Below, piece after piece: positions 13,419 to 33,018 of a stretch of DNA of 64,000 nt; the first letter of the stretch is position 1; each line of letters begins with the position of its first letter. Position numbers and translations under genes: made by a program. The notes under the pieces are model-generated. The model was not told where the DNA came from. It made no database searches and saw only the letters and a list, made by a program, of their open reading frames with translations. The stretch spans positions 309,453 through 373,452 of the forward strand of contig CP129476.1 in the NCBI GenBank assembly GCA_030583805.1, written 5' to 3'. Source of the DNA: Patescibacteria group bacterium. Lineage in GTDB: Bacteria; Patescibacteriota; Patescibacteriia; SG8-24; DYFX01.

Positions 13419-13489
13419 TCGGGGATCGTCTAATGGTAGGACAACAGACTCTGAATCTGTTTATCTTGGTTCGAATCCAGGTCCCCGAG
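13419..13489 (+). tRNA. tRNA-Gln (anticodon CTG)
   Basis: Hand-folded cloverleaf: acceptor tcgggga/tccccga, D-arm gtc-taatggtag-gac, anticodon stem acaga/tctgt with loop ctCTGaa, T-arm cttgg-ttcgaat-ccagg, discriminator G, encoded CCA at 13490-13492. Confidence 0.85.
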
Positions 13490-13664
13490 CCAAAGAAATT
13501 AAGTTCAGGTAGACCGGAACCTCCGCCCAAAACTGACGGGGTTCCAATAGACCGGAATGCCTGAAATCGAATGTGAAAGCACTGGAGAGATCCGGTGTTT
13601 TCGTTTTGACGAAGCCTTTCCTGAGGGGTACGGTGATGTCCGAATAATAACCCTAATAAAGTGA

Positions 13665-16600
13665 GTGGTGGCCAAGCCTATTAAGAGGAAAATATACGCG
13701 GCCAATCTGACCACCCTCATGGGGTTTGGCCTATTCGGCATCCTTTCGGCCGAAGCCTACTATGTTGGATCTTCCACGGCCTCCAAGCTTGTGGGTGATT
13801 TCCACAGAGGTGATTACGGATATTGGCTGGCGACCATCTGCACGGGCTACCTGCTGTATGTCGTCGCCTATTTCATCTTGAGAGGCGGTCCGGCTGCTGC
13901 TGCGAAACTGCTTAAGAGCAGGCGCGCGGATGTCGTTGGTGTCTTCGTGGCCGGAGCACTGATGAGTATCTCGTTCGGCGGATTCGGCAGTCCCCTCTAT
14001 CAGAAATTGGCATATACACTCACCGTCTATCAAATACTCACGCTCGCCCTGCTGCCATTTGCGCTGGGACTTTTGATCTTGCTCCGAGCATTGCAGCGTG
14101 GTCCGGATCGAGAGGGCTTGCCGCCGTTTTTCATCAGCGACGTTGAGCAGAAAAACAAGACTGGCGACCTACTTGACCTTGCGGATGAGGCAGATCGGTT
14201 TGCAGAGCGCGTCTGGAACAACGGCTCAATAGAAAGCATGGTGTTCGGCATTGACGCGCCATGGGGCATCGGAAAGTCATCATTCGTAAATTTTTGCAGG
14301 GAGTCATGGGAAGGAAAACACAGAGGACGGGTCATCCTCTATAATTTCAATCCCCTAAGGTATGAAGATCGGGCGAATCTCCTTGAGAAGTTCGTCGACG
14401 GCCTTGTTCGCGTCGTACAAAAACACGCTTTTGTCCCAGAGATTAGGCCACTGGTTTCAAAATATTCTCGCTTCATCAAAAGCGCCAAAGCGTCATTCAG
14501 TTTTTTGGGGGTTGATTTCGAATTGGCACCCGGCACATATACGGTCGATGATGCCTTCGCAGATCTTGAATCAGCCCTGACCGACATCGACAGAAAAATT
14601 GTCATCGTCATCGACGATCTCGACAGGTTGGATTTCTCGGCGATTAAGGACGTCCTCTCTGTGATTAAGAAGAGTTTTAACCTGCCCAATGTTTCCTACG
14701 TCCTCTGCTACGACACTGAGAATATCAATGTGCTGGAAAGGGAACGGCCTGATGTTGAGAAAGTGACGGAGTTCCTTGAGAAATTCGTCAACGTCAAGGT
14801 GGGCCTGTACCTCGACAGCGAGACGCTCGCTAAATACGTCTCCACCAATCTCGCCAGGGCCCTAGTGGGTAACTCTCAGGCCGATCCGAAGCTGGTTTCG
14901 GCGGCGGTTGGTGGTCTCATCGACATCTATAAGTCTCCCGAATTCCACCGCTACCTGCCCTTCATCGGCGATGTTAGAAAAATCAAGAGGTTCATCAATA
15001 CACTCCTGCTTCTTGAAATCGAAAAGGCTGATTTCAAGAATAGTGATTTCGACAAGCAGGACTTGGTTCATCTGCTGTTGATCTATATTAATTATCCGAG
15101 CATCTTCCGGAAGATTTATAACGCCGAGACGAATGGGCGCCGGGGGTTCTTTTCGGTCGCCATGCCCCTCGATGATAACTACCCGAAGGATCCGAGTGCG
15201 GCGCGATCAGGACTAGAAAACACCTACAAAAACTCTACGGATTACGAGGCCTATGTGAAAAAACTTACCGATAACCAGAAATTCCTGCTCGGCAAGATTT
15301 TTGACGTTCCTCTAAGGTTGAAGGACGCGAGAATTGACGGCGTCCCTCAAGAAGCCAAGCATGTGTACGCTTGTTTCAATGGGGGCGTGTTCGGCGGCGG
15401 CCAAAATCTTGAGGCCTACCTCAATTTGATCGTCAAACTTTCCAAGCCCCAAAAGAGTGGCCAGTACAAGTTTTACGCAAATCTCAAGGACGAGATCCGC
15501 GACGGAAAGAAGTCCATCGATGATGTACTGTCAACATCCGATTTTTCGTATGATTGCCCAGAGAGCAACCGCGAACAGCTGTGGAAAGTCATCATCAACA
15601 GCCTGTCGGAATTCAAGAGTGTGGTGGGTAGCAAGCTGATCGTTCACCTGCTAGGGAATATGCAGAACTATTCCCTCTTCACAAATCAGGTGATTGGCGT
15701 CGGTTTGCGAGACGACCTAGATATTTTCCTGACGAGGCTGCTCGATCAGGTGGGTTGGAAGGATCAGAAAGGCGAGCACACCGACAACACCCCAGAAAAC
15801 ATTTCTGAAATTGCCGAATGGGTCTTTGGCGAAGGGCGGCACGCTGGTCAATCGGTTCTTTTGACACTCGCCAAAGAAGACCGCGGCACCCTCGGCCTCT
15901 ATGATCTGCTTTGCTTCCGCCTCTTTTGCAGCGCCGATCGAGGGGGTGATATCTTCAATCTTTCTCGTGCACTCTCAAAGCATGGCGACCCCAACGCACC
16001 GACAGATGGTTCAATAAGGGAGATTGCTATCGGGGAAATGCGTGAAATATCGCAAGCTGTCTTCGGTATTTTCAAGTCTCAATACATCGATCCCGGAAAA
16101 AACATTTTTGATTTAATCGATGGGCTCTCTTTGGCTGATTTTGCCGGAAAATACCAAGCATACATCGAAGGAAAGGTTACATCTGGAGAGATCGAAAATG
16201 CTGAAACTACGGTTGCCGATCTTAAGTCACGCATGAAGTCATTCATCACCTACCAACTGACCAATACCTACATCAGTAGCGGCGTCGGCTGCGGTTACTA
16301 CGACCCGTCAGGCAAAGAGGACGCTGGAGGAATCAGCCACAGCGTCAATGACTACCTTTTCGGTACGTGTTTTAACCCCAGCGTCGCCGGGAAAAATTAT
16401 GAACACTTCTTGGACTACTTGCTCATAAATTTTGCCAGCACCTTTGAATCAAGGGGTGGTCGTGAATACACCCCACATATCAATGAATTCACAAAAATCC
16501 TCGACAAGTCAAAGCTCGCAGAGTACTGGCGCGAACACGCCACCACGATCAGGGGTCTGAACCTAACTGAGAAGGAAAAGACAGTGATCACCTCAAATTA

Positions 16601-16700
16601 TTCTGCTTCGTACAAAGACGATCTGGCGGGCGTGTTTCAGGTGCTGGACAAGCTCATCGAAGAACCTGTAGTCGAGGCACCTGTCGCGCCTAGCGCTTAG
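13665..16700 (+). CDS. KAP family P-loop NTPase with four N-terminal transmembrane helices
   Basis: GTG start. Four hydrophobic helices in the first ~140 aa. FGIDAPWGIGKSSFVNF (KAP Walker A GxWGxGKS) and VIVIDDLDRL (Walker B). Confidence 0.8.
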   Translation: MVAKPIKRKIYAANLTTLMGFGLFGILSAEAYYVGSSTASKLVGDFHRGDYGYWLATICTGYLLYVVAYFILRGGPAAAAKLLKSRRADVVGVFVAGALMSISFGGFGSPLYQKLAYTLTVYQILTLALLPFALGLLILLRALQRGPDREGLPPFFISDVEQKNKTGDLLDLADEADRFAERVWNNGSIESMVFGIDAPWGIGKSSFVNFCRESWEGKHRGRVILYNFNPLRYEDRANLLEKFVDGLVRVVQKHAFVPEIRPLVSKYSRFIKSAKASFSFLGVDFELAPGTYTVDDAFADLESALTDIDRKIVIVIDDLDRLDFSAIKDVLSVIKKSFNLPNVSYVLCYDTENINVLERERPDVEKVTEFLEKFVNVKVGLYLDSETLAKYVSTNLARALVGNSQADPKLVSAAVGGLIDIYKSPEFHRYLPFIGDVRKIKRFINTLLLLEIEKADFKNSDFDKQDLVHLLLIYINYPSIFRKIYNAETNGRRGFFSVAMPLDDNYPKDPSAARSGLENTYKNSTDYEAYVKKLTDNQKFLLGKIFDVPLRLKDARIDGVPQEAKHVYACFNGGVFGGGQNLEAYLNLIVKLSKPQKSGQYKFYANLKDEIRDGKKSIDDVLSTSDFSYDCPESNREQLWKVIINSLSEFKSVVGSKLIVHLLGNMQNYSLFTNQVIGVGLRDDLDIFLTRLLDQVGWKDQKGEHTDNTPENISEIAEWVFGEGRHAGQSVLLTLAKEDRGTLGLYDLLCFRLFCSADRGGDIFNLSRALSKHGDPNAPTDGSIREIAIGEMREISQAVFGIFKSQYIDPGKNIFDLIDGLSLADFAGKYQAYIEGKVTSGEIENAETTVADLKSRMKSFITYQLTNTYISSGVGCGYYDPSGKEDAGGISHSVNDYLFGTCFNPSVAGKNYEHFLDYLLINFASTFESRGGREYTPHINEFTKILDKSKLAEYWREHATTIRGLNLTEKEKTVITSNYSASYKDDLAGVFQVLDKLIEEPVVEAPVAPSA

Positions 16701-17985
16701 CCACACTTAGATGTTGGTCTGCTAGAACAATGCTAGTTTTTACACAGAGGAGAAGCTCACGCTTTTCCTCTTTTGTTCCGTTGATTAGGACGTGGCGGAG
16801 GTACTTCTTGTGATCCAGCCGAGGCATTTTTGTGCTCGCCTCTGCACCGAGCATGGATGCCATGAAACGCTGATTCCGCTCAAGCTCGTCCTGGAATTTC
16901 TTTTTTGAAACCGCGTGGTCGATCTCCAGCTCGTCGAGGATGCCGACGAGCTGTTCAATGAGCACCTCCTCGCGAACGTACGGTTCCTTGCAGTCTTTGT
17001 CGGTGGTCCGCCCACAGTGATAGTAGACGTAGCGCTGGCGCGTGCCGTCGCGTAAGCTCTTGAACTTCTCCTGCGCTGTGACGCCGGAGCCGCACGCGCC
17101 GCACTTCATGAGGCGGGTGAAGGCAAACTCTTTCGACCCCCACTTGGTCTTTTTCTTTTCCATCGCCAGCTGCCTCTGCACGTCGTTGAACAATTCCTCC
17201 GTGACGATGGACTCGTGGGCCACCGGGAACCAGTTTCCGCTTCCGCATGGATACTCGAACCTGCCGTAGTAATAGGGGTTCCGGAGCATGAGGTAAATCA
17301 TGCTTAGCGGCAGTTTCTTGCCCTTCCGCGTTTTGAACCCGACCTCGTCGAGCCATACCTTGATCTTCCTGCCGCTGTGACCGAGGTTCGAGACGCGCTC
17401 GAACATCTCCTTGATGATTGGCGCACGTTCGGGATCGAGGAGAACCTTCTGCTCGCCCTTCATCGTTGTCTTGGTGTTGAAGTACCCGAGCGGCGACTGG
17501 TTCGGCCTCCAGCCCTGCTGCACCTTGGCACGTTGCCCCCGTTTCACGTTGACACCACGGTTGTCATTCTCGAGTTTTGCCTGACTGCACAGGATCATCA
17601 GCAGGAACTTCTCGTTCGGCGAGTTGGTGAAGTGCTGGCTCGGTGTTCGGATCTCGACGAGCTTCCCTTGATCCATGAGGTCGACGAGTGCCCCCAGGTC
17701 GCCGCCGTTGCGGCTGAGTCGGTCCGGTGCCCACGTCAGGATGCCGTTGAATGTCCCGGCGCGCACATCCGTGATCAGGCGGTTGTATTCCGGACGCTGG
17801 TTCGAGTCCTTCGCGGAGTGGCTCTCGCGCCGCGTCGCCACGACCTCCAGCTTCTCACGCTCGGCGAGCTCGAGCATCTCCTTGATCTGCGCGTCGATCG
17901 ACAGCGCCTGCCGCTCGTCCTGCTCGCTCGACTTCCGGGCGTACAGGCAGTACCGAACAGGTACGGCTTCAGTTGGCTTGTTCAT
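16690..17985 (-). CDS. Large serine recombinase (resolvase/invertase N-domain + recombinase domain + zinc ribbon)
   Basis: YCLYARKSSEQDERQALSIDAQ is the catalytic Ser region. CGACGSG in the C-terminal zinc-ribbon region. 431 aa. Confidence 0.85.
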   Translation of the reverse strand: MNKPTEAVPVRYCLYARKSSEQDERQALSIDAQIKEMLELAEREKLEVVATRRESHSAKDSNQRPEYNRLITDVRAGTFNGILTWAPDRLSRNGGDLGALVDLMDQGKLVEIRTPSQHFTNSPNEKFLLMILCSQAKLENDNRGVNVKRGQRAKVQQGWRPNQSPLGYFNTKTTMKGEQKVLLDPERAPIIKEMFERVSNLGHSGRKIKVWLDEVGFKTRKGKKLPLSMIYLMLRNPYYYGRFEYPCGSGNWFPVAHESIVTEELFNDVQRQLAMEKKKTKWGSKEFAFTRLMKCGACGSGVTAQEKFKSLRDGTRQRYVYYHCGRTTDKDCKEPYVREEVLIEQLVGILDELEIDHAVSKKKFQDELERNQRFMASMLGAEASTKMPRLDHKKYLRHVLINGTKEEKRELLLCVKTSIVLADQHLSVAKR

Positions 17986-18064
17986 AGCCCTTATTTGCCC
18001 TTACAGCCCCTTAATAGAAGGCATGTAGGACATCAATGCCGCACCCCGACCGTGAAGGCTAGGC

Positions 18065-18175
18065 TGGCCTTAAAAGCTCTTTAAAGCCATATGACACCGA
18101 CGAATCTCCGAACATCCCTGGCAATCCTGATGACAAGCATGGGGAAGGCATCCGCGAGATAGCTCGGCTATGCGA
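18065..18175 (-). pseudogene. Truncated 3' fragment of a second terminase large-subunit (terL) copy
   Basis: Reverse translation gives ...LADAFPMLVIRIARDVRRFVGVIWL*, matching the C-terminus of the intact TerL (...LADAFSMLVIRVAKDVRRFVGIIWL*). About 80% nt identity to 19360-19470. Confidence 0.7.
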
Positions 18176-18304
18176 ACCATCGAGACGAGGTCGGGATGAC
18201 ATTTTTGTCCCATAACGCACCATCATCGGATATTTGACGAGGATTAATCCACATGTTAGTCTTGCACCGGCTCACAACAACCACCCGAGCCATTGGAGGC
18301 AGAA

Positions 18305-18775
18305 ATGAAGCGCATCGTTCTTTTGACGGCGGTTCTCGCATACGGCGTGTTGACCTCGGGCTGTGTCGTGGATGACGACGGCGAGGACCTAGGGGTCACG
18401 GAGCAGGAGGTTACGGTCAACGACACACTGCCCACATCTGGGAGTAAGACGGTCAGCGTAGCCGTCTATCCTGGTGCACCCTCAGACATTATCATGAGTT
18501 CTCCGTCTTCCGGCAACTGGAAGTTCGAGACGTACGGCAGCCCAATCAGTCTGGGTGGTTGCTCGGCCGGCGACTTCATCGTCTACACCTACTGGCGAGA
18601 CACAAGCGTCAGCTCGACGTGGAACTACTGGCCAGGAGGCGGGCCGGTCTGTTACCCGACATCCGGGTGGTCGACGAACCTGTACAGCGGGAGCAGCACC
18701 ATTCAGTACAAGTTCGAGTACTACGCGTACGGCGGTTATGGCGAAACCGTTTACGCGAAGTTCACGAAGCAATAG
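18305..18775 (+). CDS. Hypothetical lipoprotein (Trp/Tyr/Ser-rich)
   Basis: GGAGG SD 5 nt upstream of the ATG. Signal peptide with lipobox LTSGC. Confidence 0.6.
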   Translation: MKRIVLLTAVLAYGVLTSGCVVDDDGEDLGVTEQEVTVNDTLPTSGSKTVSVAVYPGAPSDIIMSSPSSGNWKFETYGSPISLGGCSAGDFIVYTYWRDTSVSSTWNYWPGGGPVCYPTSGWSTNLYSGSSTIQYKFEYYAYGGYGETVYAKFTKQ

Positions 18776-18816
18776 TCGAGGGCTCGTACGTCGTGCTAGT
18801 ATGTGAATACAGCACG

Positions 18817-19287
18817 ATGTTTTTAAACCCAAACCATATGTCCATGCCCAAGCGTGTCCGGGAACTACTTTCCACAGCGTCCTTGTTGTTTTTTGTGTGG
18901 CTTTCCGCATTTAGTGGCGATTTCATTGCCGCGCGCACATTCCAAATGAATGATGCCTCCATCCGCAATCCTTGGTGGTCAGTAATCGTAATAGGGTTGC
19001 TCCAACTGATGTTCATGTACGTCGGAGCGCAAGCCATACTGCATATTCTTAAACCCGGCCGCGTCAATAAAAAGCTAGGATTACTTACAGCCCTAATCGC
19101 GTGGCTTTCACTAGAAAAAGTTCTCGCGTTTCCTCGATTGCTTGCGACTCTGCTTCCCAACGGGATTATCGGTACAAACACCGCTCTTTCTACGGTTATC
19201 GTAATTGCAGCACAACTTTCGGTGACGTATCTGCTGGTGTTGATTATCTCGCGCTTGTTGCTTACGGGAGAGGGTGATAGCAAGTGA
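18817..19287 (+). CDS. Hypothetical integral membrane protein (~4 TM)
   Basis: MFLNPNHMSMPKRV... start inside the longer track ORF. Multiple hydrophobic helices. Confidence 0.5.
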   Translation: MFLNPNHMSMPKRVRELLSTASLLFFVWLSAFSGDFIAARTFQMNDASIRNPWWSVIVIGLLQLMFMYVGAQAILHILKPGRVNKKLGLLTALIAWLSLEKVLAFPRLLATLLPNGIIGTNTALSTVIVIAAQLSVTYLLVLIISRLLLTGEGDSK

Positions 19288-19369
19288 CGATTGGGAGCAT
19301 ATAGTTACCGGGAGTAGCTAATGCCTTTCTGCTTGTGACTGTCTGGCTTGTGCCGCCCTTAAAAACCCC

Positions 19370-20860
19370 TTAAAGCCAGATGATACCGACGAATCGCCGA
19401 ACGTCCTTGGCAACCCTGATGACGAGCATCGAAAAGGCGTCCGCAAGATCGTCGTGTCGCTCCGCGCCGAAGCCGACGAGCTGGCGGATCAGGTCATCGC
19501 ATCCGGTCTTCGGAAAGTAGATGTTGCCGAGTTCCATCTCTCGCGCCGCCAGCGTTAGTCGCGCCCGCTTGTCCATGCCCTCTGGACTCACGCCGTAGGT
19601 CGTGAGGTTCGCGTGCTTCATAGTCTCGATCGCCGCGCGTTGAAAGGCGACGTCCTCGACGTAGAAGCGGTGGTACTTCCGATCCGTCATCGTCTTGGTG
19701 AGCTTGGCGGCCTGGATGATCCCTTCGAACGTGAGGTGCTTGTTCGTTACGAACGGCAGGATGTAAACGCGATAGTCCTCACAGAAACCCTGTCGGTCGG
19801 ATTTCTTGTACACGGCAGCGGTGACCATCGCGGTGTAGTCAGCCGACTCGCGCTGTGAAATCGCGAGATCTATACCAGTCGCCACAAACTCGAAGTGCCA
19901 CCCCGGTTCAAGAATGTTCGGCGGCTCGTCCGGAAGGCCCGCGTATCGCTTAATCCATTCCGGCTGCACGACCTGATCTCGGTCGGGCACGATCTCCTGC
20001 ATATACTCCCTGCGAAAGGCCCACTGGTCACCGATCTTTCGCTTGAGATCCTCGATGTGCTCCATCGTCGGGAACTTGGCCGGCCACGCGGGACACCCGT
20101 CTATGACGATCGGGTACTGGCGATAAATGCCGGTCAGTTCCTTTTTCTCAATCTCGTCCTTGAGACGGGCGACAAGCGATTCCTCGTGGAGGAGGTTGCC
20201 GACGATGAAGATGTTGCAGGAGTCGCCGCCCGCCGGGATGACTTCCGATTTCAGCCATCGATATCGCTTCTCACGGATCTCGCTCGAACGAACTGAATCG
20301 AGGTCCTCGACGTCGTCGATAATGATCAGGTCGGGGCGGTTGGAGTGGTTCTTGAGTCCTCGGAGTGAGCTGTCCGCCGAAAGCGCGACAATCCTCGCCT
20401 TGTATCGCGGTAGGACAAGCGAGTTCTCGTTCCAAATATCACCCACGTTGAACGGGCCGTAGTCATTGATGAGGCGGGCGTTCGTTTCCAGCTCAGACTT
20501 TATGTTGTAGAGGATCTGTTTGGCCTGCGGCTCGGTCTTGCTGATGATCAGGATGAACTTCTTGCGTCCCGTCACCGCCGCCCAGATGGGATACGAAAGC
20601 GAGGCGATCGTGGACTTGCCCGAGTTCCTGAAGGCGACCACGACACGGAGCGGGTCTGCACATGACTCCGTCAGCCGGAAGATCTCTTTATGAAAGAGGG
20701 CGAACGGCACCGTCATGTGCTCGCCGAGATACGTCATGAAGAACCACAGATGACTTTCCGTGGTGAGACCGATCCGAAAGGCGCGCTCCTTCTCGATACG
20801 CGAGAAGGTTTCCTCAAGAGATCCGTTTTGAGGTTGAATTCTTTCCTGCATCGCCGTCAT
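19370..20860 (-). CDS. terL: Phage terminase large subunit (TerL; ATPase + RNaseH-like nuclease)
   Basis: AFRNSGKST (Walker A), LIIIDDVED (Walker B), ATGIDLAISQRESADYTAMV in the nuclease domain. Start taken at MTAMQERIQ, overlapping the terS 3' end. Confidence 0.85.
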   Translation of the reverse strand: MTAMQERIQPQNGSLEETFSRIEKERAFRIGLTTESHLWFFMTYLGEHMTVPFALFHKEIFRLTESCADPLRVVVAFRNSGKSTIASLSYPIWAAVTGRKKFILIISKTEPQAKQILYNIKSELETNARLINDYGPFNVGDIWNENSLVLPRYKARIVALSADSSLRGLKNHSNRPDLIIIDDVEDLDSVRSSEIREKRYRWLKSEVIPAGGDSCNIFIVGNLLHEESLVARLKDEIEKKELTGIYRQYPIVIDGCPAWPAKFPTMEHIEDLKRKIGDQWAFRREYMQEIVPDRDQVVQPEWIKRYAGLPDEPPNILEPGWHFEFVATGIDLAISQRESADYTAMVTAAVYKKSDRQGFCEDYRVYILPFVTNKHLTFEGIIQAAKLTKTMTDRKYHRFYVEDVAFQRAAIETMKHANLTTYGVSPEGMDKRARLTLAAREMELGNIYFPKTGCDDLIRQLVGFGAERHDDLADAFSMLVIRVAKDVRRFVGIIWL

Positions 20861-21317
20861 TTTTCGGTTTCGAGTTGGCCTCTGTCTCTGCCAGCCCAGT
20901 TTCGCCGCCGGCCGCCTCCGCGAGAAGCGCAACGGATTGTCGGATGATCTCTTTCTGTGTATCCGAGATCTCGACGGGCTCCTGCTGTTGCGGCGCGAGG
21001 AGTTCGACTTTTGTCGCGTATGCGCGGTGGTGGTGCTTGAGCCAGAAGATCACGGCCGTGAGGTTTCCTTCCCTAATGGCAGTCATGAGCTGTGACTCAG
21101 CCATGTCGTTCACAAGACCCGCGCCGGTCTCAACGGCCTCGTCGACGGCGGCGGCGAACGCCGCGTCATCCTTCCGCCAGCGGTAAAATGTTGCGCGGCC
21201 GATCCCGACCTTTTGGCAGGCTCCTTGAACGATCGGCCGCTTGCGTAGCTCTTCGACCAGAACCTCTTTCTGCTTTTCCTGCCGTATGGTGACGGCGTCC
21301 TTCTTCTCAGTCCCCAT
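20814..21317 (-). CDS. terS: Phage terminase small subunit (TerS, HTH + FWLK motif)
   Basis: HTH CQKVGIGRATFYRWRK and NLTAVIFWLKHHHRAY, resembling Terminase_2-family small subunits. Sits immediately upstream of terL. Confidence 0.65.
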   Translation of the reverse strand: MGTEKKDAVTIRQEKQKEVLVEELRKRPIVQGACQKVGIGRATFYRWRKDDAAFAAAVDEAVETGAGLVNDMAESQLMTAIREGNLTAVIFWLKHHHRAYATKVELLAPQQQEPVEISDTQKEIIRQSVALLAEAAGGETGLAETEANSKPKNDGDAGKNSTSKRIS

Positions 21318-22638
21318 ATGAGATGCGTGTGGCCTTGAGGCCTGTCAGGTTCTCCCAGCGCTTCCGGATGACCTCGGCGTACACGGGGCTTTTCTCCATC
21401 AGGAAACATCGGCGCTTGAGCTTCGTCGAAGCGATCAGCGTGCTGCCACTCCCGCCAAACGGCTCGATGACGAGGTCGCCGCGCTTCGTGAGCATCTTGA
21501 TGTATGGAATCAGGATTTCGGTCGGCTTCGTGCCGAAGATGACGCCCTGACCCGAGTGCTTTTCGTCGGACGAGCGGAACTCGATGAAGTCCGTGGGGCA
21601 GTTCTTTTTGCCCTTCTCGTAGGACTCCCATTGCGGCTTGCCGCTGATGGCGTAGAGGGCGGTCTCGTACTCCTCTTGGAGCGGGGCGTCTTCCGGCTCA
21701 TTGTTGTATGGGACGTCGCCTGACGCGCCGACCATGGCGATGTCATGCTTATTGAAGAACCGGTATTTCGACGAGAAGCCCTGATGCCGGTTTTCGAGAT
21801 GCCACACGATCATGTTCTTCACCTTCCAACGCTTCTCCATCTCGTCCCAGATCGTCCGGATGTTCTTCCAGTTTTCAAACACGATGATGGCGAAGTTTGG
21901 CTTGGCCGACGCCGCCACGCTGTTCATCCATAGCTCGGTGAAGTTGTCTGGCAGGGACTCGGTCTCGAGGTAGCGTCGGTCCCGCTTATAGCCGAAGCCG
22001 GTCACCGGATCGCCGTGCTTCTTCTTGCCCTTCAGGTAATCGAGAATGTAAGGTGGGTCCGTCATGCACATGTCGGCCTTCTCGCTGCCCATGAGCTTCT
22101 GGAATTCCGCTTCGACGGTCGAGTCCCCACACATGAGGCGACTGTCGCCGAGCGCCCAGACATCGCCCTTCTTGATCTCGATCTCGTTGATGTCCAATTT
22201 TTCGAGCTCCTTCTGTAGGTCGAACGTCTCTGGCGTATCCTCGACGTCGAAGATGCGGTCGAGTTCTTGACTCGAGAACCCGACGTCGGACAGGAATGAC
22301 TCGTCAAACTTGGCCAGCATTTCCCAATCGAACTCTCCGGTCGTGAGGTTGCTTCGGACGTTATACTCCTCGAACTCTTCCATTGTGAGCTTCCGATTCG
22401 GGACGCGCACGTCGATTTCTTCCTCCCCGCGCCCAAGCGCCAGCAGAATCTTGATCCTCTGATGCCCGGCGATGAGACGATTATCCGTATCGATCGCGGG
22501 GATCTCTACGAGATTGAATCTTTCAAGCGACCGCTTGAGCTGTTCCACTTGCTCGTCGGAAATCTTGCGAGGATTTCCCTCCCACGGCAGGATCTCCGCG
22601 ACCTTTCTTTTCTCCGTAAGCCAGTGAAGGCTGTCCAT
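21307..22638 (-). CDS. ParB-like nuclease N-terminal domain fused to N6-adenine/N4-cytosine DNA methyltransferase
   Basis: LIAGHQRIKILLALG (ParB/Srx fold), MTDPPY (motif IV DPPY) and EPFGGSGST (motif I). 11-nt overlap with the terS start. Confidence 0.85.
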   Translation of the reverse strand: MDSLHWLTEKRKVAEILPWEGNPRKISDEQVEQLKRSLERFNLVEIPAIDTDNRLIAGHQRIKILLALGRGEEEIDVRVPNRKLTMEEFEEYNVRSNLTTGEFDWEMLAKFDESFLSDVGFSSQELDRIFDVEDTPETFDLQKELEKLDINEIEIKKGDVWALGDSRLMCGDSTVEAEFQKLMGSEKADMCMTDPPYILDYLKGKKKHGDPVTGFGYKRDRRYLETESLPDNFTELWMNSVAASAKPNFAIIVFENWKNIRTIWDEMEKRWKVKNMIVWHLENRHQGFSSKYRFFNKHDIAMVGASGDVPYNNEPEDAPLQEEYETALYAISGKPQWESYEKGKKNCPTDFIEFRSSDEKHSGQGVIFGTKPTEILIPYIKMLTKRGDLVIEPFGGSGSTLIASTKLKRRCFLMEKSPVYAEVIRKRWENLTGLKATRISYGD

Positions 22639-22710
22639 AAAAAATGGTCATGATGAGTTATCACCATGACCATATCAATCGACAGGTTCGGGTCGTGGGA
22701 AGTCTGACCC

Positions 22711-23520
22711 CTATGATTTCCCACGCTTCCGGAATCGTTTTTTCCTTGTTTTCTCAAGATCCTTCACGATGTAGCGAACCGCATCAGATTTCTTGTCGGT
22801 GCCCAAAAGTTCCGATGCAATTTCGGCCGTCGTGGTCTTGTAGGGCTTCTGTTCGACCGGATCAAACTGTTCCCCCCGTCGGTACCACTCTTCGATGCTG
22901 AGATCGCGGTCGATGTGCTTCATCGGCTTGTAACGCGGCATACCCCTATGCTTTGCGAACCATTCGACCTGCTGCATCGCGAGGCGGATATCTTCTTGGG
23001 TCGGTATCGTATAGAACGTGACTGGGATGTGTCGCACCGTGCTGAGCCTTTCGTTTGATCTCAGCTCTGTCCAAGGTCCGATGACAAAATTATGATACGG
23101 GGCAGTTATCCTGCCTTGGACGATGTACGTGTCAACGTGGTTCTGATAGTTCTCCGGGAGGTTAAACTTTTCGACAATGAAACGCGCCCTGCCCGATCGG
23201 TAGTTGATGGGCACCTCCTCGCGGTAAAGGTTGATCCGCCTGTAGTACTCGTCTGAATTTATTTTCTTGGCCTTCCATTCATCGGTGATAGCTCGACCGC
23301 GGGCATAATAATCAGGCTTTCCAAGAACTGCGTCGCTGGCGGCAATCCACGAATCCGACCAGCGCTTCATGTCATCGTCAGTCTTTAACCCGCCGCCCGC
23401 GATTCCAAGCGTCTGTCGCACCTCCGCGACGATATTCTGAAACTCCTTGTCAGAAACAAGGAGTTTCATATTCGCCAAATTGGCTTCGTAGCATTTCGGG
23501 TGCTTGTGCGGCTTCGCCAT
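22711..23520 (-). CDS. Hypothetical protein (269 aa, basic C-terminus)
   Basis: Clean ORF in the low-GC island, divergent from the Type III mod gene. No motif I recognise. Confidence 0.5.
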   Translation of the reverse strand: MAKPHKHPKCYEANLANMKLLVSDKEFQNIVAEVRQTLGIAGGGLKTDDDMKRWSDSWIAASDAVLGKPDYYARGRAITDEWKAKKINSDEYYRRINLYREEVPINYRSGRARFIVEKFNLPENYQNHVDTYIVQGRITAPYHNFVIGPWTELRSNERLSTVRHIPVTFYTIPTQEDIRLAMQQVEWFAKHRGMPRYKPMKHIDRDLSIEEWYRRGEQFDPVEQKPYKTTTAEIASELLGTDKKSDAVRYIVKDLEKTRKKRFRKRGKS

Positions 23521-23765
23521 ATAAAAATACTGAGATAGTCAGCGTCTGAGAGACTTATTCAATCAGACGGATCAGTTTGGGTGTCGCTATGAACTTATTG
23601 AAGTGCTGGGTCTCCATAAGGCTATTATATGCCGCAGAAAACCTGATCCGCCAGTTTTGGAAGACCTAAATAACCTTAACGAGACAGGCGGAATGCCTAA
23701 AATCCCCTTAAAAAGCAAGTCCTCTAAAGAACTTCACTTTTTCCAGTTTCTAAGCTACTCTTTGT

Positions 23766-23881
23766 CTGTCTAGACCCAACCCGAACAGGGCAAGTTTTGC
23801 CTATTTCCGGATCGCGCGCATAGAGCGGCATCCGGATAAAACAATCCTCGCACGATCCGTGCTTGGGTTGGGTCTAGACAC
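23766..23881. promoter_or_regulatory. Inverted-repeat-rich control region between divergent genes
   Basis: gtctagacccaacccgaaca (23766-23786) and its complement cttgggttgggtctagac (23860-23879), about 75 bp apart. Internal palindromic tccgga sites. GGGTGTCGCT direct repeat at 23578 and 23886. Confidence 0.5.
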
Positions 23882-23940
23882 CTCCGGGTGTCGCTTTGTT
23901 TTTATAGGCATCCGGCGGGCTTACACGTCATCTGTAGCCC

Positions 23941-25662
23941 ATGCCTCAAAATCCTGCCCAACTAAAAGAAGGAGAGCTGCTGCTTCGTGTTGCGGAGCTT
24001 GAATCCGAGATAAAAAAGTTAAAGGAGAGAAAAAAGTACGGTCTCGTCTGGGAGGATCGGTCGGAAGACGTGGTTTTGCAATGCCGCGAAAATGTTCCGA
24101 TTCTTCAAGAATACAAGGCGCAAAAAATCGTCACTGATGAAGCAACGTCCGCAAACATCCTAATCGAGGGCGATAACTATCACGCCCTCTCCGTGTTGAA
24201 CTATACCCATCGAGAGGCTTTCGACGTAATCTATGCCGACCCACCTTATAACACTGGCAATAAAAGCTGGCGGTATAACAACGACTACGTTGAGAAGGAC
24301 GACGATTTCAAGCACAGCAAGTGGCTATCCTATATTCACAAGCGCCTCCTTTTGGCGAAAAACCTACTGACGGATTCGGGCATCCTGATATTTGCTATTG
24401 ACGATTATGAAGCCCACACCCTGCGTCTGCTCCTTGATGAGGTCATGGGTGAGGATAATCGCCTCGGCACGATAGCTGTAGTACACAATCCTCGCGGAAG
24501 AAACGACGATCAATTTTTTGCGACCCAGCACGAATACATGCTCGTTTACGCAAAAGATCATAGCAGGGCTGAAATAGGAAACTTCGAACTCACGGAAGAA
24601 GACCGCAACCAATATAAAAAACATGATGAGATTTCTCCGTACGCAGAAACGTCGTTTATGCGCACTGGAAACAACTCAAACCATCACGAAAGACCCAAAC
24701 TTTTTTACCCCATATTTTTTAATCCGAGAACCCGGAAGCTCTCTCTAAAATTAGAGAAAGGGGGCATCGAAATACTGCCAATCAACGAAGCGGGTGAAGA
24801 GAAAACGTGGCGCTGGGGTAAAGAGACTTTTGAAAGGCTGTGCGACACCGATCTTTTTGTAAAGACTGTTAAGGGCAGGGATCGGATTTTTAAGAAAAGA
24901 AGACTAACGGTCGATACGGGAAAGAAACCAAAGAGCGTCTGGTATAACTCCAGGTATGATGCCTCGACACAAGGCATCATGGTTTTGCAGGACATTTTTG
25001 GCCGCGGCAATCATTTCAATTACCCAAAATCATTGCTCTTGATGGAGGATATTTTGGAGATCACTTCAAAGCCAGACTCGCTAGTCCTCGATTTTTTTGC
25101 TGGAAGTGGCACCACTGGTCACGCCGTTCTCAAGCTCAATAAGAAAGATGGCGGCAACCGTCGCTTCGTACTGTCTACGAACAATGAAAATAAGATTTGC
25201 GAGGAGGTAACCTATGAACGCCTGAAACGCGTTATAAAGGGTTATACGAATAGCAAAGACAAAAATACTGTGGGCCTCGGCGGAAATCTGACTTACTACA
25301 AAACCGCCCTCGTGAGCATCGACCAGCTTCAGAAGGTATCTGACGAAGCAAAAATCAAGATTGCATATCAGGCAGGCGAGATGATTGCCGTCCGGGAGAG
25401 CACGCCGGATGAGTTAGAAAAAAATGACTGGTGGCAGCTGTTCGGGGGAAGCGGAAAAATCATGGCCGTCTACTTCAAGGAGGACAAGGCCAGGCTATCC
25501 GACCTCGTAAAGAAACTCGAAAAAACAGGCCGCCCGGTCGTGCTGTATGTCTTCGGTTGGGGCAAGAACGAATACAAGAACGAGTACGGGTCGGGAAAGA
25601 TCCGCGTCGAGGACATCCCCGAACCTATCCTTGAGGTCTACAAGGAACTGAACCGTCTCTAG
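23941..25662 (+). CDS. mod: Type III restriction-modification system methyltransferase (Mod)
   Basis: DVIYADPPYNTG (motif IV) and DFFAGSGTTGHA (motif I). N6-adenine MTase beta-class layout, followed by res. Confidence 0.9.
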   Translation: MPQNPAQLKEGELLLRVAELESEIKKLKERKKYGLVWEDRSEDVVLQCRENVPILQEYKAQKIVTDEATSANILIEGDNYHALSVLNYTHREAFDVIYADPPYNTGNKSWRYNNDYVEKDDDFKHSKWLSYIHKRLLLAKNLLTDSGILIFAIDDYEAHTLRLLLDEVMGEDNRLGTIAVVHNPRGRNDDQFFATQHEYMLVYAKDHSRAEIGNFELTEEDRNQYKKHDEISPYAETSFMRTGNNSNHHERPKLFYPIFFNPRTRKLSLKLEKGGIEILPINEAGEEKTWRWGKETFERLCDTDLFVKTVKGRDRIFKKRRLTVDTGKKPKSVWYNSRYDASTQGIMVLQDIFGRGNHFNYPKSLLLMEDILEITSKPDSLVLDFFAGSGTTGHAVLKLNKKDGGNRRFVLSTNNENKICEEVTYERLKRVIKGYTNSKDKNTVGLGGNLTYYKTALVSIDQLQKVSDEAKIKIAYQAGEMIAVRESTPDELEKNDWWQLFGGSGKIMAVYFKEDKARLSDLVKKLEKTGRPVVLYVFGWGKNEYKNEYGSGKIRVEDIPEPILEVYKELNRL

Positions 25663-25666
25663 TGAT

Positions 25667-27994
25667 ATGTTTCCACTCAAGCCATTCCAAGAGCAGGCGG
25701 TCGCAAAGCTGAAGAACGAGTTTCTTTCTCTTTGGAAGTCGCCTCACCATAATGTACCGCTCGTCTTCAAGTCGCCAACGGGTTCCGGCAAGACGATCAT
25801 GCTCGCGCAGTTCCTGCGCGACATCGTGAGCGATCCGCGCTTTCAAGGCAACGATGTGGCGTTTCTGTGGTTCTCGTTCAGCGAGGACTCCTACGTCCAA
25901 AGCAAGGAGAAGCTGTTCGCGTACTACGGCGGCGCTTCAGAGCTGGACCTGCTCGATCTGAACGACCTCACCCGAGGCAGGCTTCAGAAAAATAACGTCT
26001 TCTTCATCAACTGGCAGAAGATCAAGGGTAAGTCGAAGGACAGCCGAAAACTACGGCGCGAGAACGAATGGGGCCTGACATTTGATAACGTCATCAATAA
26101 GACCCACGAGGACGGACGCAAGCTCGTGGTCATTATCGACGAGGAACACGTCGGGGCGGATACGGACCTTGCGCTTGAGGTCATCGACGGCCTCATCCGT
26201 CCGAAGGTCACCATACGTGTCTCGGCGACGCCCAAGTACATTCCAAATGCGGAAGAGATCGCCGATGGGAAGGGCGGCTTCGTCAACGTAAAACGGGACG
26301 AGGTGGTTCTGGCCGGACTCATCAAGGAAAAAATTATCTTCCAGACGGAAGAAGACCTCAACAAGAAGGAGTTCAAGAGCGCCGACCAGGACGAGATTCT
26401 TCTTGAGCTTGCTTATCGCAAGCGACTCGATCTGATCCGCTGGTACAAGGAGATTGGCATCGATATCAACCCACTCGTCCTCGTCCAGCTCCCGAACGAT
26501 GATCAAGAATCGAAGACGAATGTCGCAACGAAACGCGGCATCGTTTCCGACTACCTCAAGCGGAAAGGTGTTTCGGAAAGCGAGATAGGCGTTTGGCTTT
26601 CGAATGAAAAGGTGAACCTTGAGAACATCGAGGCGAACGAGTCGCCTGTCTCTTTCCTTTTATTCAAGCAGGCGGCCGCGACCGGCTGGGACTGCCCGAG
26701 AGCGGGAGTGCTCGTCATGTTCCGCGAGATCAAGAACCCGACGTTCGCCATCCAAACGGTCGGCCGCATTTTGCGCATGCCGTTGGGTTCCCATTTTCCG
26801 CGTCCCGAACTCAACGTCGGCTATCTGTACACCAACTATAAAAGGAACGAGGTACTGGCCGAATATGCGAAATCGAAGTCCGACAACCGGCCGGCGATCA
26901 ACGGGAGCTATCGTAAAGCAGACGTGAAGTCGATCACGCTCGATTCGGTCTTCATGAGCCGTACGGACTACAACGACCTAGGCGACACCTTCCAGGCGAT
27001 ATTTGGGACGGCAGCCGATGGTCATTTCGGTATCAGCGACAAAGACGGCAAGCAGACTGCTCTCGATAAGCTCGCCAAGAAAGGCTTCGATACGTCGCCG
27101 AAGGTCACGAACGGCCTCATCGTCGGCGTCGAGATCGACGACTATGACAACTTCATCCAGGAGCTTGTCGCCGAGGGTGCGAGCCACGATCAGGAGATGT
27201 CGGAATACGACCTTGAACGCCTCTACAACCTCCTCTGCTTCAAGCTGATCGCCAAACAGACCGATGAACAAAAGAAGTTCGCGCCCGAGCGCTCTTGGGG
27301 AAAGCTCAAGACGGCGCTCAACGTCTGGATGATCGGACGTACGAGGGAATTCCGCCGGGCTGCCTACAGAATGATCGTCAATGACCTCCTGAACCCCGCA
27401 AGCGTCCTCGCACCGCTCATCGGCTCCTCGTTGGCGCTATATCGCCCTCTTCGAGAGCAAGAAGTGAACAGGCGTTCCGAGCGGTCGAAACGCACAGAGA
27501 CGATTGATCTCCCCCGCGAGGCACTGTTCTTCACTGATCAGTACACGGAGATGAAGGTGAAGAAATGCGCGATGTCGCCCTTCTACATCGAGAAGGACTA
27601 TCAAGGGGAGGATAATGAAAAGGGGTTCATTGCCTTCCTTGAGAGCCATAAGAATGTCCTCTGGTGGCACAAGAACGGTGATATCGGGAGCGAGCATTTT
27701 TCGATCTCGTACTACAACCCGGACGAAAACAAGGAGAGGCTCTTTTATCCCGACTGGATCGTGAAGACGCCTGCCGCCGTCTGGATCATTGACACCAAGC
27801 AGGGAGCGACGGCCGAGCTCGCCGACACCAAGCATAAGGCAGAGGCGCTACAGGCCTGGTTAAAGAGCAGGAAAGGCTTTGCTGGAGGCATAGCCGTTCA
27901 AGACGGCCCGAACGGGTGGAAACTGAACAGGAACTCTAAATACTCCTATGCGCCCTCGTTCACAGGATGGGAAGCCTTTAATGATTTGCTGTGA
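25667..27994 (+). CDS. res: Type III restriction enzyme Res subunit (SF2 helicase + endonuclease)
   Basis: FKSPTGSGKT (Walker A) and VVIIDEEHV (DEEH box). Immediately downstream of mod. Confidence 0.9.
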   Translation: MFPLKPFQEQAVAKLKNEFLSLWKSPHHNVPLVFKSPTGSGKTIMLAQFLRDIVSDPRFQGNDVAFLWFSFSEDSYVQSKEKLFAYYGGASELDLLDLNDLTRGRLQKNNVFFINWQKIKGKSKDSRKLRRENEWGLTFDNVINKTHEDGRKLVVIIDEEHVGADTDLALEVIDGLIRPKVTIRVSATPKYIPNAEEIADGKGGFVNVKRDEVVLAGLIKEKIIFQTEEDLNKKEFKSADQDEILLELAYRKRLDLIRWYKEIGIDINPLVLVQLPNDDQESKTNVATKRGIVSDYLKRKGVSESEIGVWLSNEKVNLENIEANESPVSFLLFKQAAATGWDCPRAGVLVMFREIKNPTFAIQTVGRILRMPLGSHFPRPELNVGYLYTNYKRNEVLAEYAKSKSDNRPAINGSYRKADVKSITLDSVFMSRTDYNDLGDTFQAIFGTAADGHFGISDKDGKQTALDKLAKKGFDTSPKVTNGLIVGVEIDDYDNFIQELVAEGASHDQEMSEYDLERLYNLLCFKLIAKQTDEQKKFAPERSWGKLKTALNVWMIGRTREFRRAAYRMIVNDLLNPASVLAPLIGSSLALYRPLREQEVNRRSERSKRTETIDLPREALFFTDQYTEMKVKKCAMSPFYIEKDYQGEDNEKGFIAFLESHKNVLWWHKNGDIGSEHFSISYYNPDENKERLFYPDWIVKTPAAVWIIDTKQGATAELADTKHKAEALQAWLKSRKGFAGGIAVQDGPNGWKLNRNSKYSYAPSFTGWEAFNDLL

Positions 27995-28461
27995 ACAAGA
28001 GTCGTCACCTTGAGGTACTAATAGAATCCGTGAGAGATAAGTGTGACTTCCTAGCTGAGGCGAACAACACGTTAGATGGGAAAGCTGCGACATTAATGGG
28101 CTTTGAGATCACCCTCGGCATAGGCTACGCGTCATTGGTACTTGGAAATGTGGGTGGTACTAATCATGACGAGGGTGTCGCTGGGTTATTCATGTTGGGC
28201 ATGTCTGTAGCTTCTCTGCTGTACGTGAACTGGCCCCGAGATTACACGACGACCTGCGTCGATCTTTTCGAACACACAGAATACCTGGAGAAGGGGACGG
28301 GAGATTTGTTGCTCCAATTAACGAGTGATGCACAGAACGCCTTCTCTCAAAACAACCAAAAATTGAAAACCAAGGCCAGGTTCTATAAAGCTGCGATCGT
28401 CCTGCTTCTCGTCGCTACATTCTTGTTCCTGATGTCAAAATCACCAAACTTCTATGTCTGA
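27991..28461 (+). CDS. Hypothetical small membrane protein (3 TM), translationally coupled to res
   Basis: ATGA-type overlap with the res stop. Hydrophobic segments ITLGIGYASLVLGNVGG, VAGLFMLGMSVASLLYV and AAIVLLLVATFLFLM. Confidence 0.55.
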   Translation: MNKSRHLEVLIESVRDKCDFLAEANNTLDGKAATLMGFEITLGIGYASLVLGNVGGTNHDEGVAGLFMLGMSVASLLYVNWPRDYTTTCVDLFEHTEYLEKGTGDLLLQLTSDAQNAFSQNNQKLKTKARFYKAAIVLLLVATFLFLMSKSPNFYV

Positions 28462-28644
28462 TACTCGACAACCCCAACCTCAACCCAAGCCGATCGAGCT
28501 TCCGAAACCGAATCAGGGAGAGACTGTGACAAAGGGTGGCTAGAGCCCACAACACGAATCTCAACCCCATTTCCAGACCATGTGTAAATATGCGTGAGTT
28601 TCTGGTGTGGTCGAACCAGCGAAGAATTATAGCATCGGCCGTCC

Positions 28645-30009: not shown

Positions 30010-30022
30010 AAGACCGCCTCGC

Positions 30023-30889
30023 TTAAATCAACTCGATCAGTAACTTTTTCAGCTGTTGAAGCATCGGCTTCTCGTCAGTCGAGAACTCAACTGCATTTTT
30101 CTTTTTACCCGCAATTGCTTGGATCAATTCATCGATCAAGAGTGAAAAACCTGATTGCTGAGATCGTTCTTCTAGTTCCTGAATGGTCATGTCCGGGTCG
30201 GTTAGGAACGCGTAGAGTGCGTCTTCGTTCACGGCCGCACGGATGAAGATGCGTTTTAGTGTTCTGATGTCTTGGGCATTGGTAATCACGTCGTAACTGA
30301 TTTTCTCGAAAATGGTGCGGATAATGGCATCGACTTCCAGGTTTTTAATCTTCCGAATCTTGGGTTTCATTTTCAAGAATTCCACCCGATAACTTTCTTT
30401 CAGCTGATAGCGTTCCATCATGGCGATGTGCTCGACATTTTGATCCCGCATTTTTAGAACATAGGTTACTGTGGAGTGTGACAGGTGCAGTGCATCAGCC
30501 AGTTCGACCGTCGATTTATAGCCCATCGCTGATTTGATTTTAACGAAGGCGTTGGAGCGTTCGGCAGGCGTCCACTGGCGCTTGTTGTTTTGAATCTCAA
30601 ATCGTCTCAGCTCGAACTCCCCCGGATCCATTTTCGGATATACTCGGCAAGGAACGGCCGTGAGGCCGATTTCCTTGGCACACTCAAAACGACGGTGGCC
30701 GTCGAGAATCAGGTAACGGTCCTTGTCGATCTCGCTCACGGCCAGGGGCATCTCAATACCCATATCCTTAATTGAGACGAGTAGGCGGTTGTGTTCGCCC
30801 TTTACTCCGAATTCTTTACGAGGTTGGTCGGGATCCATCGCTATCTGGGCAACAGCTATCTCACGAAACACGGGTTTGTATTTTTCCAT
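30023..30889 (-). CDS. ParB-like protein (ParB N-terminal nuclease-like domain + HTH)
   Basis: LILDGHRRFECAKEIG is the ParB box. HTH LADALHLSHSTVTYVL. ATG at 30887-30889; the track ORF begins at an upstream TTG. Confidence 0.75.
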   Translation of the reverse strand: MEKYKPVFREIAVAQIAMDPDQPRKEFGVKGEHNRLLVSIKDMGIEMPLAVSEIDKDRYLILDGHRRFECAKEIGLTAVPCRVYPKMDPGEFELRRFEIQNNKRQWTPAERSNAFVKIKSAMGYKSTVELADALHLSHSTVTYVLKMRDQNVEHIAMMERYQLKESYRVEFLKMKPKIRKIKNLEVDAIIRTIFEKISYDVITNAQDIRTLKRIFIRAAVNEDALYAFLTDPDMTIQELEERSQQSGFSLLIDELIQAIAGKKKNAVEFSTDEKPMLQQLKKLLIELI

Positions 30890-31099
30890 ACAGGACAAAG
30901 AGCAAACGAGTTGTACCCGTTTTTACCCTTTTTTATGTTTTACGCTCGGAGTGATTATTTTCACTCCCGAATGGGAGGAAGTTAACGAAGTGGGTGTTTT
31001 TTGTCAAGAAAATATAGGAGTGTTCGTGACATTGACGCATGGGGCCTGTCAGCGTACAGTTGAGTTATATTTGTACGCATTATAAGCTTACGTAAGACT

Positions 31100-31450: not shown

Positions 31451-31454
31451 CACG

Positions 31455-32901: not shown

Positions 32902-33018
32902 ATCGACGCGGTTCGGCGACTAGGAAATACCGGGAGGGCGCATTCGGGCGCCCTCCCGGTCAAGTCCGACTCGCCGTATTTCATCCGTCTTTAAGAAAAT
33001 CTTCTATGTAATAATCCT

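Follow-up and report, generated by a model that had tools for sequence, protein, structure and literature searches.

The stretch of DNA considered here comprises 64,000 nucleotides (nt) from a Patescibacteria group bacterium (contig CP129476.1, positions 309,453 to 373,452) and was drawn from a 1.17-Mb contig of a Patescibacteria metagenome-assembled genome (MAG); we refer to the whole of it as the window. Within it, the 3′ end of terL, the gene for the terminase large subunit (TerL), is present twice in the same orientation, once as the end of the intact gene and once as an orphan fragment beside the gene for a large serine recombinase (LSR), SR1. A cassette of two genes, encoding a lipoprotein and a small membrane protein, lies between the two copies, opposite in strand and convergent to terL. 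Coordinates are those of the window unless another locus is named, and designations such as L002 stand for the loci and contigs with which it was compared. The features at the locus are as follows.

16690..17985, minus strand: gene for the large serine recombinase SR1, 431 amino acids (Pfam Resolvase, Recombinase and Zn_ribbon_recom; PHROG 95 integrase, E = 7e-69)
17986..18080, minus strand: conserved block of ~95 nt upstream of the LSR gene, from an alignment of the window, L002, L004, L005 and L008
18063..18160, minus strand: repeat copy 1 (the orphan), with 25 terL-like codons at 18084-18158, a stop codon at 18081-18083 and 18 nt downstream
18161..19351, plus strand: insert of 1,191 bp, absent from L002, L003 and L183 (blastn against the window)
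18305..18775, plus strand: lipoprotein gene, 156 amino acids, with a signal peptide and LTSGC lipobox, the mature domain being a predicted beta-sandwich
18838..19287, plus strand: small membrane protein gene, 149 amino acids, in which visual inspection suggests about four hydrophobic helices
19352..19449, minus strand: repeat copy 2, the 3′ end of the working terL (last 26 codons, stop codon and 18 nt downstream)
19370..20851, minus strand: intact terL, 493 amino acids (PHROG 38, E = 2e-72; Pfam Terminase_6C; 97% amino acid identity to P0001)

A repeat search aligned 18063-18160 with 19352-19449 over 98 nt without gaps, at 83% identity and a spacing of 1289 nt. This pair is by far the longest direct repeat within 13.3-35 kb and belongs to the sole family that the search reported there. 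In 20-nt windows, identity ranges from 0.75 to 0.90 inside the repeat and from 0.15 to 0.55 outside it, with background reached at both ends; both breakpoints are sharp, no bases being shared outside the repeat, and the longest block that is fully identical between the copies measures 11 nt. When the 600-nt flanks of the inserted gene pair were aligned with each other by the Smith-Waterman method, the score was 55.5, compared to 9.8 ± 1.2 for 100 shuffles (z = 38). The similarity is therefore far above chance level, and the direct repeat that a preliminary description of this DNA had claimed is real. Its extent, there put at 18065-18175 and 19360-19470 (~110 bp, ~80% identity), requires correction, since those coordinates are slightly shifted and run ~15-20 nt too far at the right end, the true length being 98 nt.

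The window sequence, including both junctions, recurs at 100% identity in contigs L001/L095 (SRR24881069) and L096 (SRR31594170). Because the junctions are reproduced in contigs from two read sets, an assembly artefact is unlikely, and as an explanation of the repeat it is essentially excluded. Contig L096 is 1,253 nt long, corresponds to window 18143-19395 at 100% identity, and ends within both repeat copies, at repeat position 81 in copy 1 and position 44 in copy 2. Its right end falls just past the 11-nt identical block and ahead of a mismatch between the copies. Branching of the graph during assembly (alternative junctions) may explain these ends, as may low coverage alone.

The roles assigned to the two copies in the preliminary description also hold, as does the pair of genes placed between them. 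Copy 2 is the C-terminal coding end of terL, which is intact, and copy 1 is a terL fragment with the peptide described, directly upstream of the serine recombinase. A tblastn search with TerL matched the orphan at 18158-18084 (25 residues, 84%, E = 5e-8), so that it represents TerL residues 469-493 only; it encodes (Y)LADAFPMLVIRIARDVRRFVGVIWL before its stop codon, where the terL counterpart reads DLADAFSMLVIRVAKDVRRFVGIIWL before its own. An in-frame TAG lies immediately upstream of the orphan and no start codon is available. Expression is therefore not expected, and the orphan is, to judge from its sequence, a dead and non-functional relic. On its other side, copy 1 continues unbroken into the ~95-nt block and on to the SR1 start codon 78 nt away, so that the recombinase gene adjoins the insertion site. 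The block spans from just past the orphan stop to the LSR start, its first 18-19 nt being within copy 1.

The duplicated stretch begins right after the last invariant TerL columns, D467, D468, L469, D471 and A472 (motif DLADAF), and extends to 18-19 nt past the stop codon. Comparison of terL between the window and L002 gave a synonymous divergence (dS) of 0.40 and a ratio of nonsynonymous to synonymous divergence (dN/dS) of 0.03, indicating that the gene is under purifying selection; for the LSR gene, dS is 0.85. Past the invariant HDDLADAF, family members whose TerL proteins are otherwise 55-70% identical have tails (residues 467-493, window 19370-19452) that are unrelated to one another, both in length and in sequence. 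The C-terminal end of TerL contacts the portal in other phages, and swapping of the tail could alter helper or capsid specificity.

Relatives with a single copy

A protein search with the TerL of the window returned one cluster at 97% identity, the next match being at 71%. The protein cluster to which the TerL of the window belongs has three members only, those of the window, L002 and L183. SR1 is likewise 94-96% identical in amino acid sequence to the LSRs of L002 and L183. A conserved core followed by the LSR, 91-122 nt past terL, is found in L002, L003, L005, L006, L008 and L183. In the closest relatives (L002/L003 and L183) the order is terL, 92-95 nt, LSR, and the 98-nt segment is present in a single copy, which is the arrangement of an unoccupied site. 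By blastn, L002 1267-3313 corresponds to window 21399-19352 (91%) and L002 3219-4647 to window 18158-16729 (87%), with an overlap of 95 nt in L002. Upstream of the single segment, the sequence of the relatives matches that beside copy 2, and downstream of it the sequence matches that beside copy 1. Since these relatives are single-copy and uninterrupted, the window carries an insertion of 1,191 bp together with a duplication of 98 bp. The preliminary description had offered a duplication-mediated insertion of cargo as its second alternative, and an insertion accompanied by duplication is indeed what the comparison with L002/L003 and L183 demonstrates.

The junction between terL and the LSR gene receives cargo elsewhere in the family as well. 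The order terL then LSR on one strand occurs in 38 family loci, 22 with the two genes adjacent and 16 with a separation of 0.8-7.6 kb, and in the smaller gaps lie small genes such as those for XRE regulators and for proteins that are secreted or anchored in the membrane. With cargo in 16 of the 38 loci, the junction is a recurrent cargo site, or hot spot. Two full-length diverged terL genes stand back to back before the LSR gene in L048 (9920-13042) and L035 (49-2211). In L016 and L020, two diverged terL genes lie one upstream and one downstream of the genes for a ParB-methyltransferase and the terminase small subunit (TerS), in the order terL, ParB-methyltransferase, methyltransferase, terS, terL.

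The modules on either side of the junction have separate histories. TerL identities to the window in L005, L006 and L008 are 71, 70 and 61%, while the LSR identities are 86, 58 and 76%, and this disagreement across relatives shows that terL and LSR modules have been exchanged repeatedly. A sliding identity profile of the window and L002 is a mosaic of 81-97% and holds no clean breakpoint at the repeat. The block upstream of the LSR gene is conserved even beside unrelated terL tails (L005, L008) and is better kept than the adjoining terL tail. Within the block (L002 3297-3390 and its equivalents in the window, L005 and L008) are the element GGCAT-N11-ATGCC and, right before the start codon, direct repeats of TAAGGGC type, three or four in number. 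The block may be a promoter/operator or a recombination site. A motif search found no second informative site for the TAAGGGC-type repeats or the GGCAT...ATGCC element elsewhere in the window, and the block had no match among viral contigs, where the closest terL relative is at 44%.

Contig L004 (1560-2199), from the same study as L002, has an identical terL and upstream block and diverges 5-8 nt past the LSR start codon. The sequence past this point is an unrelated membrane-protein gene with 87% DNA identity to a Saccharibacteria MAG (L038 19409-19602), where it lies 8 kb downstream of terL. Compared with the segment 3296-3400 of L002, L004 thus has an alternative junction precisely at the LSR start, which could be a deletion, an attachment (att) junction or a chimera.

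The cassette and the island

Neither cassette protein matched a Pfam or PHROG family. The AlphaFold model of the lipoprotein has a predicted local distance difference test score (pLDDT) of 82, and a fold search with it returned generic beta-sandwich matches only, at template modelling (TM) scores of about 0.5, so that no function can be assigned to the lipoprotein. A large protein collection holds 15 homologues, all on Patescibacteria-type contigs. The membrane-protein gene follows the lipoprotein gene wherever the contig is long enough (L087, L091, L093, L094 and L099), and the membrane protein of the window has 40-49% amino acid identity to these paired partners. The neighbourhoods are those of ordinary chromosomal DNA: YceG, UvrD and MetK in L087, an M24 peptidase and PolA in L099, HSP20 and VanW in L091, and in both L093 and L094 a position directly downstream of tRNA-Asn. 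At the DNA level, the window and L094 are 78% identical over window 18268-19307, which covers the two genes and ~20-40 nt per side, and are unrelated beyond. As the homology is limited to the genes and short flanks, the cassette is host-type DNA without conserved element ends.

In two of the other settings the cassette is also bracketed by repeats. A duplicated tRNA-Asn 3′ end with terminator flanks it in L094 (40-123 and 1331-1377; z = 11.8), and repeats of 33 and 26 nt at 94-96% identity flank it in L091 (7107-7183 and 8552-8609; z = 15). Each copy of the L091 unit is followed by a terminator-like hairpin, and the unit itself matched no Rfam family; Rfam scans of the window region, L091, L093 and L094 found tRNAs only. 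No significant flanking repeats surround the cassette in L087, L099 or L093. A scan of metagenome contigs for further copies of the cassette yielded 2 short loci only, and the 64-kb window holds no second lipoprotein copy, the genome contributing one cluster member.

Two simple identities of the insert can be set aside. No terminal inverted repeats were found at its ends and no transposase domain within it. A transposon or insertion sequence was rejected on these grounds and because the duplication is 98 nt at 83% identity, rather than short and identical, and the ends are not conserved relative to L094. Native host DNA trapped between two elements was likewise rejected, as the flanks share no synteny with the housekeeping contexts and gave only a 31% match to HhH-GPD. 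The GC content of the insert is 52%, a small difference from the 57-58% of terL and the LSR gene, and a promoter and terminator consensus scan of the cassette found no more sites than in shuffles.

The locus forms part of an island of lower GC content (48-58%, compared to 60% in the flanks) that the GC profile places at ~13.5-33 kb, with one edge at a tRNA-Gln gene. The further features of this island that enter the argument are these.

13419..13492, plus strand: tRNA-Gln(CTG), marking one island edge (ARAGORN; Rfam, 62.9 bits)
13665..16700, plus strand: KAP-family P-loop NTPase, cargo between the tRNA and the LSR gene (Pfam PF07693, E = 9e-41)
20814-21317, minus strand: TerS-like helix-turn-helix protein of the conserved core (Pfam and PHROG searches)
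21307-22638, minus strand: ParB-N6/N4 DNA methyltransferase (ParB-MTase) of the conserved core (Pfam and PHROG searches)
22711-23520, minus strand: 269-amino-acid protein (p269) of the conserved core

The gene order of the core region 20814..23520 is unchanged in L002, L005, L006 and L008. The core (p269, ParB-MTase, TerS, TerL and LSR) adjoins tRNA-Gln or tRNA-Asn in the window (13419-33000), in L002, L005, L006, L008 and L018, and in ~60 more loci; in L002 and L005, too, a tRNA-Gln lies beyond the cargo on the LSR side. In a scan with one genome per species, the ParB-MTase/TerS/TerL module occurred in ~65 of 80 loci, mostly from Patescibacteria. A search of the window for a duplicated tRNA-Gln 3′ end that would fix the far island boundary found none at up to 3 mismatches in 23 nt.

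Apart from the KAP NTPase, the cargo of the island comprises a type III restriction-modification pair, a second, unrelated LSR with a ParB-like gene, and an XRE regulator. The KAP NTPase gene (plus strand) and the SR1 gene (minus strand) are convergent, and their 3′ ends overlap by 11 nt (16690-16700). The second LSR (28645-30009, 454 amino acids) is unrelated to SR1 (~22% identity over 82 residues) and opens a group extending to 32177 that includes the ParB-like gene, the XRE regulator (31100-31450) and an open reading frame at 31455-32177 with a HEAGH metallopeptidase-like motif and no Pfam match; two integrative modules may have combined to form the island. The cargo on the LSR side differs in every relative, consisting, for example, of genes for a cyclic-oligonucleotide-based antiphage signalling system (CBASS) in L002 and of an OLD-TOPRIM ATPase and UvrD in L006. 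The relatives fill two shared cargo positions with other defence genes, such as PLD-SNF2 and an Eco57I/MmeI-like methylase in L005 and L006, and in a complete Woesebacteria genome an N6 methylase and MamI flank the core. None of the loci examined showed a portal or capsid gene close to the core, and the core island could be a satellite-like packaging island. Our literature searches found no description of terL/LSR islands in Patescibacteria, which is not proof of novelty. This capsid-less core of TerS, TerL, ParB-methylase and LSR, widespread in Patescibacteria and with swappable defence cargo, is a more interesting subject than the repeat that it houses, and may deserve a study of its own.

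Origin of the repeat

The question of how the second terL end arose can be approached by treating the two copies as alleles. We compared 80 coding positions (78 nt and the stop codon) of copy 1, copy 2, L002 and L183, leaving out the last ~15 alignment columns, where a gap is misplaced. Copies 1 and 2 differ at 12 positions, copy 1 and L183 at 8, copy 2 and L183 at 9, copy 2 and L002 at 12, and both copy 1 and L002, and L002 and L183, at 15. Judging by these pairwise counts, the two copies are as far apart as alleles of separate lineages. Shared sites group copy 1 three times with the functional terL of L183, once with L002 and never with copy 2, and the orphan carries GTC ATA (Val-Ile), a state present in a working terL elsewhere. 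Private changes number 4 in the orphan (2 synonymous, 2 replacement) and 2 in copy 2. Over the 26 tail codons, the copies differ by 8 synonymous and 4-5 replacement changes, the latter all conservative. Such site patterns are expected if the orphan was, during the greater part of its past, the 3′ terminus of a different working terL, and are not expected if it was copied from copy 2 and then drifted. Along the 98 nt, comparison with L002 revealed interleaved matches and no switch point that would mark a crossover.

We consider that there is about an even chance that the repeat is the scar of a one-off, imprecise recombination at the boundary between the terL tail and the LSR module, either between two related elements or between a resident element and related DNA from outside. 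In this family the modules are visibly reshuffled at that boundary, and cargo accumulates there. The partners would have been related but non-identical; one would have supplied terL with its tail and the cassette, and the other its LSR module with the final 78 nt of its terL attached. If the joints were imprecise, that is, illegitimate, both tails would have been kept and the host-type cassette trapped between them. The bringing together of two alleles and the manner in which the joints formed are thus what this reading proposes beyond the insertion and duplication themselves. On this reading, the repeat has no function of its own and is an ordinary scar, not a working repeat system.

A number of points weigh against such an accident between two lineages. 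The donor arrangement that it calls for, with terL and the cassette at +19, was not found in any database, and there is no precedent for such a joint: when the 16 cargo-bearing junctions were searched for a duplicated terL end with blastn (word size 7) and with tblastn of the last 80 residues, none had one at the DNA or peptide level (0/16), whereas the window, serving as positive control, was recovered. About a dozen variable sites underlie the allele test, the 8 differences of copy 1 from L183 are not significantly fewer than its 12 from copy 2, and the counts are too small to reject a duplication in place. A later allelic replacement of the working terL tail, following duplication in place, would give the same pattern. 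Finally, L094 and L091 also have direct repeats flanking this cassette, in contexts unrelated to the present one, which hints at a mechanism linked to the cassette rather than at a one-off accident.

A second reading is duplicative insertion in place, which we hold to be possible but rather unlikely. It supposes that a 1.2-kb fragment was pasted into the terL 3′ end with copying of 98 bp of the target, by template switching during replication or by repair of a staggered break with filler DNA, and that the copies, identical at the start, diverged thereafter as the orphan drifted and the working tail changed synonymously or was overwritten by other alleles. It requires the fewest events, a single insertion relative to L002 and L183, and the numbers of private changes are compatible with it, a neutral branch of ~0.1 fitting the dS of 0.4 to L002. 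The even split of the orphan's private changes into synonymous and replacement is a hint of relaxed constraint, and the repeats around the cassette in L091 and L094 could be younger or older cases of the same process. However, no site joins the two copies against L002 and L183, whereas three join copy 1 and L183, and the 8 synonymous against 4 replacement changes depart from the ~60% replacements that free drift predicts (binomial p ~0.05). Nor is a source for the pasted copy evident, given the single lipoprotein gene in the window, and the cassette lacks both terminal inverted repeats and ends conserved with L094 beyond the genes and ~40 nt. The repeats in L091 and L094 also lend themselves to a more active role of the cassette. 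The gene pair could move with one target 3′ end as a circle of 1,289 bp that lacks an integrase and integrates at the 3′ end of a matching gene, by site-specific or Campbell-type recombination; the replacement end that it brings would preserve the target gene, as happens at icd with e14 and phage 21, and a recombinase acting in trans, possibly that of the neighbouring LSR gene, would do the work. The anatomy is that of attL and attR at a protein-coding target: the insert is flanked by the intact gene at one end and by an orphan 3′ fragment at the other, and most changes between the two versions are synonymous or conservative; the LSR gene starts 78 nt from copy 1, and the ends of L096 within both copies could reflect branching of the assembly graph. 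Nevertheless, such a cassette is unlikely. No recombinase gene lies between the repeats, SR1 being outside, beyond copy 1, and large serine recombinases exchange strands at a 2-bp core and create no long direct repeats. With a longest identical block of 11 nt, the copies would also be poorly suited to homologous recombination, one cassette would need three attachment sequences for its three different targets, and, since the TerL cluster comprises three members only, no TerL with a hybrid tail is on record. Moreover, the close relatives are without the cassette, and the cargo junctions elsewhere are without the duplication.

In a broader form of the same idea, which we regard as very unlikely, the cassette would hop among unrelated targets, each time at the 3′ end of a gene (tRNA-Asn in L094, a short locus in L091 and terL here), by means of trans-acting recombinases, duplicating or replacing the target end, and the terL/LSR boundary would be a capture site served by the adjacent LSR. 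Most improbable of all is that two complete related islands once stood in tandem at the tRNA-Gln and that nearly all of one was lost by two internal deletions. The allele-like divergence of the copies would agree with this, and doubled terL arrangements are known in the family (terL-terL-LSR in L048 and L035, and those of L016 and L020); yet at least two separate deletions would have been needed, leaving the cassette exactly between them, and tblastn of all core proteins revealed no relic of a second terS, ParB-MTase, p269 or SR1-type LSR in the window, the second LSR that is present (28645-30009) being unrelated to SR1. The preliminary description had put forward two tandem terminase-bearing elements, one largely deleted. 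As stated, this is not supported, because all that remains is a 25-codon orphan with no relics of terS, ParB-MTase or p269 in the 64 kb, but its notion of two terL lineages fits the site patterns, small as the counts are.

The insertion has added a new surface or membrane cargo operon to the island and has separated the LSR gene from read-through transcription of terL. Taken alone, the repeat is of little importance. It fixes one event of cargo acquisition in time and place, and marks the boundary between the terL tail and the LSR gene as a place of cutting and rejoining in this island family. The orphan, if the recombination scar between two lineages is the correct reading, would be a preserved second allele of the terL tail and a useful marker, and the terL/LSR junction is a good place to look for ongoing exchange.

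Comparison with known systems

The structure is of a known kind, an insertion scar with a duplicated gene end, situated at a cargo hot spot. The nearest described counterpart is the insertion of e14 into the 3′ end of icd, which leaves an orphan version of the end, icdC, with mainly synonymous or conservative differences, as described in PMC13626634 (citing Hill et al. 1989). At icd of E. coli, where e14 and phage 21 insert, the gene is kept intact by a second 3′ end and the orphan version (icdC) lies beyond the insert. In the window, too, the 3′ end of a target gene is directly repeated, one copy completing the intact gene and the other being an orphan across the insert. However, e14 is a 15-kb element that has its own integrase between the repeats and excises upon SOS induction, whereas the insert in the window measures 1.2 kb, holds only the lipoprotein and membrane-protein genes between the copies and thus no recombinase, and has no documented excision; it does not qualify as an integrative element that encodes its own recombinase. 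Integrase-less islets and cis-mobilizable elements (CIMEs) also combine short cargo with direct repeats of a target gene 3′ end and lack a recombinase of their own, and the cassette at tRNA-Asn in L094 has exactly their look. A CIME is derived from an element with which it shares its att site and which also mobilizes it. For the window, in contrast, no partner element was identified, and the neighbouring recombinase is of the serine type, which yields no long att repeats. A platform for integron-like cassettes was considered and rejected; a recombinase gene is adjacent, but cassettes do not recur at the same site, given the lack of a duplicated terL end at all 16 cargo-bearing junctions.

With regard to how the joints look, template switching and homology-facilitated illegitimate recombination share with the window the sharp breakpoints, the foreign DNA beside a homologous anchor and the lack of element-specific ends. 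Template switching gives duplicates that are initially identical, whereas the copies in the window are 17% apart, and homology-facilitated illegitimate recombination usually gives deletions. In content and position the cassette resembles the phage morons of Hendrix and Juhala, extra transcription units located between genes that are adjacent in related phages. It is a small, oppositely oriented surface or membrane unit between terL and LSR genes that adjoin each other in the closest relatives, and the same junction bears other small cargo in other family members. Morons normally come without flanking duplication of a neighbouring gene end, though; no convincing promoter or terminator belonging to the cassette was detected, and its GC content differs little from that of its surroundings. 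The structure is therefore closest in form to the attL and attR ends at a protein-coding target, as in icd/icdC with e14, and closest in content and position to a phage moron.

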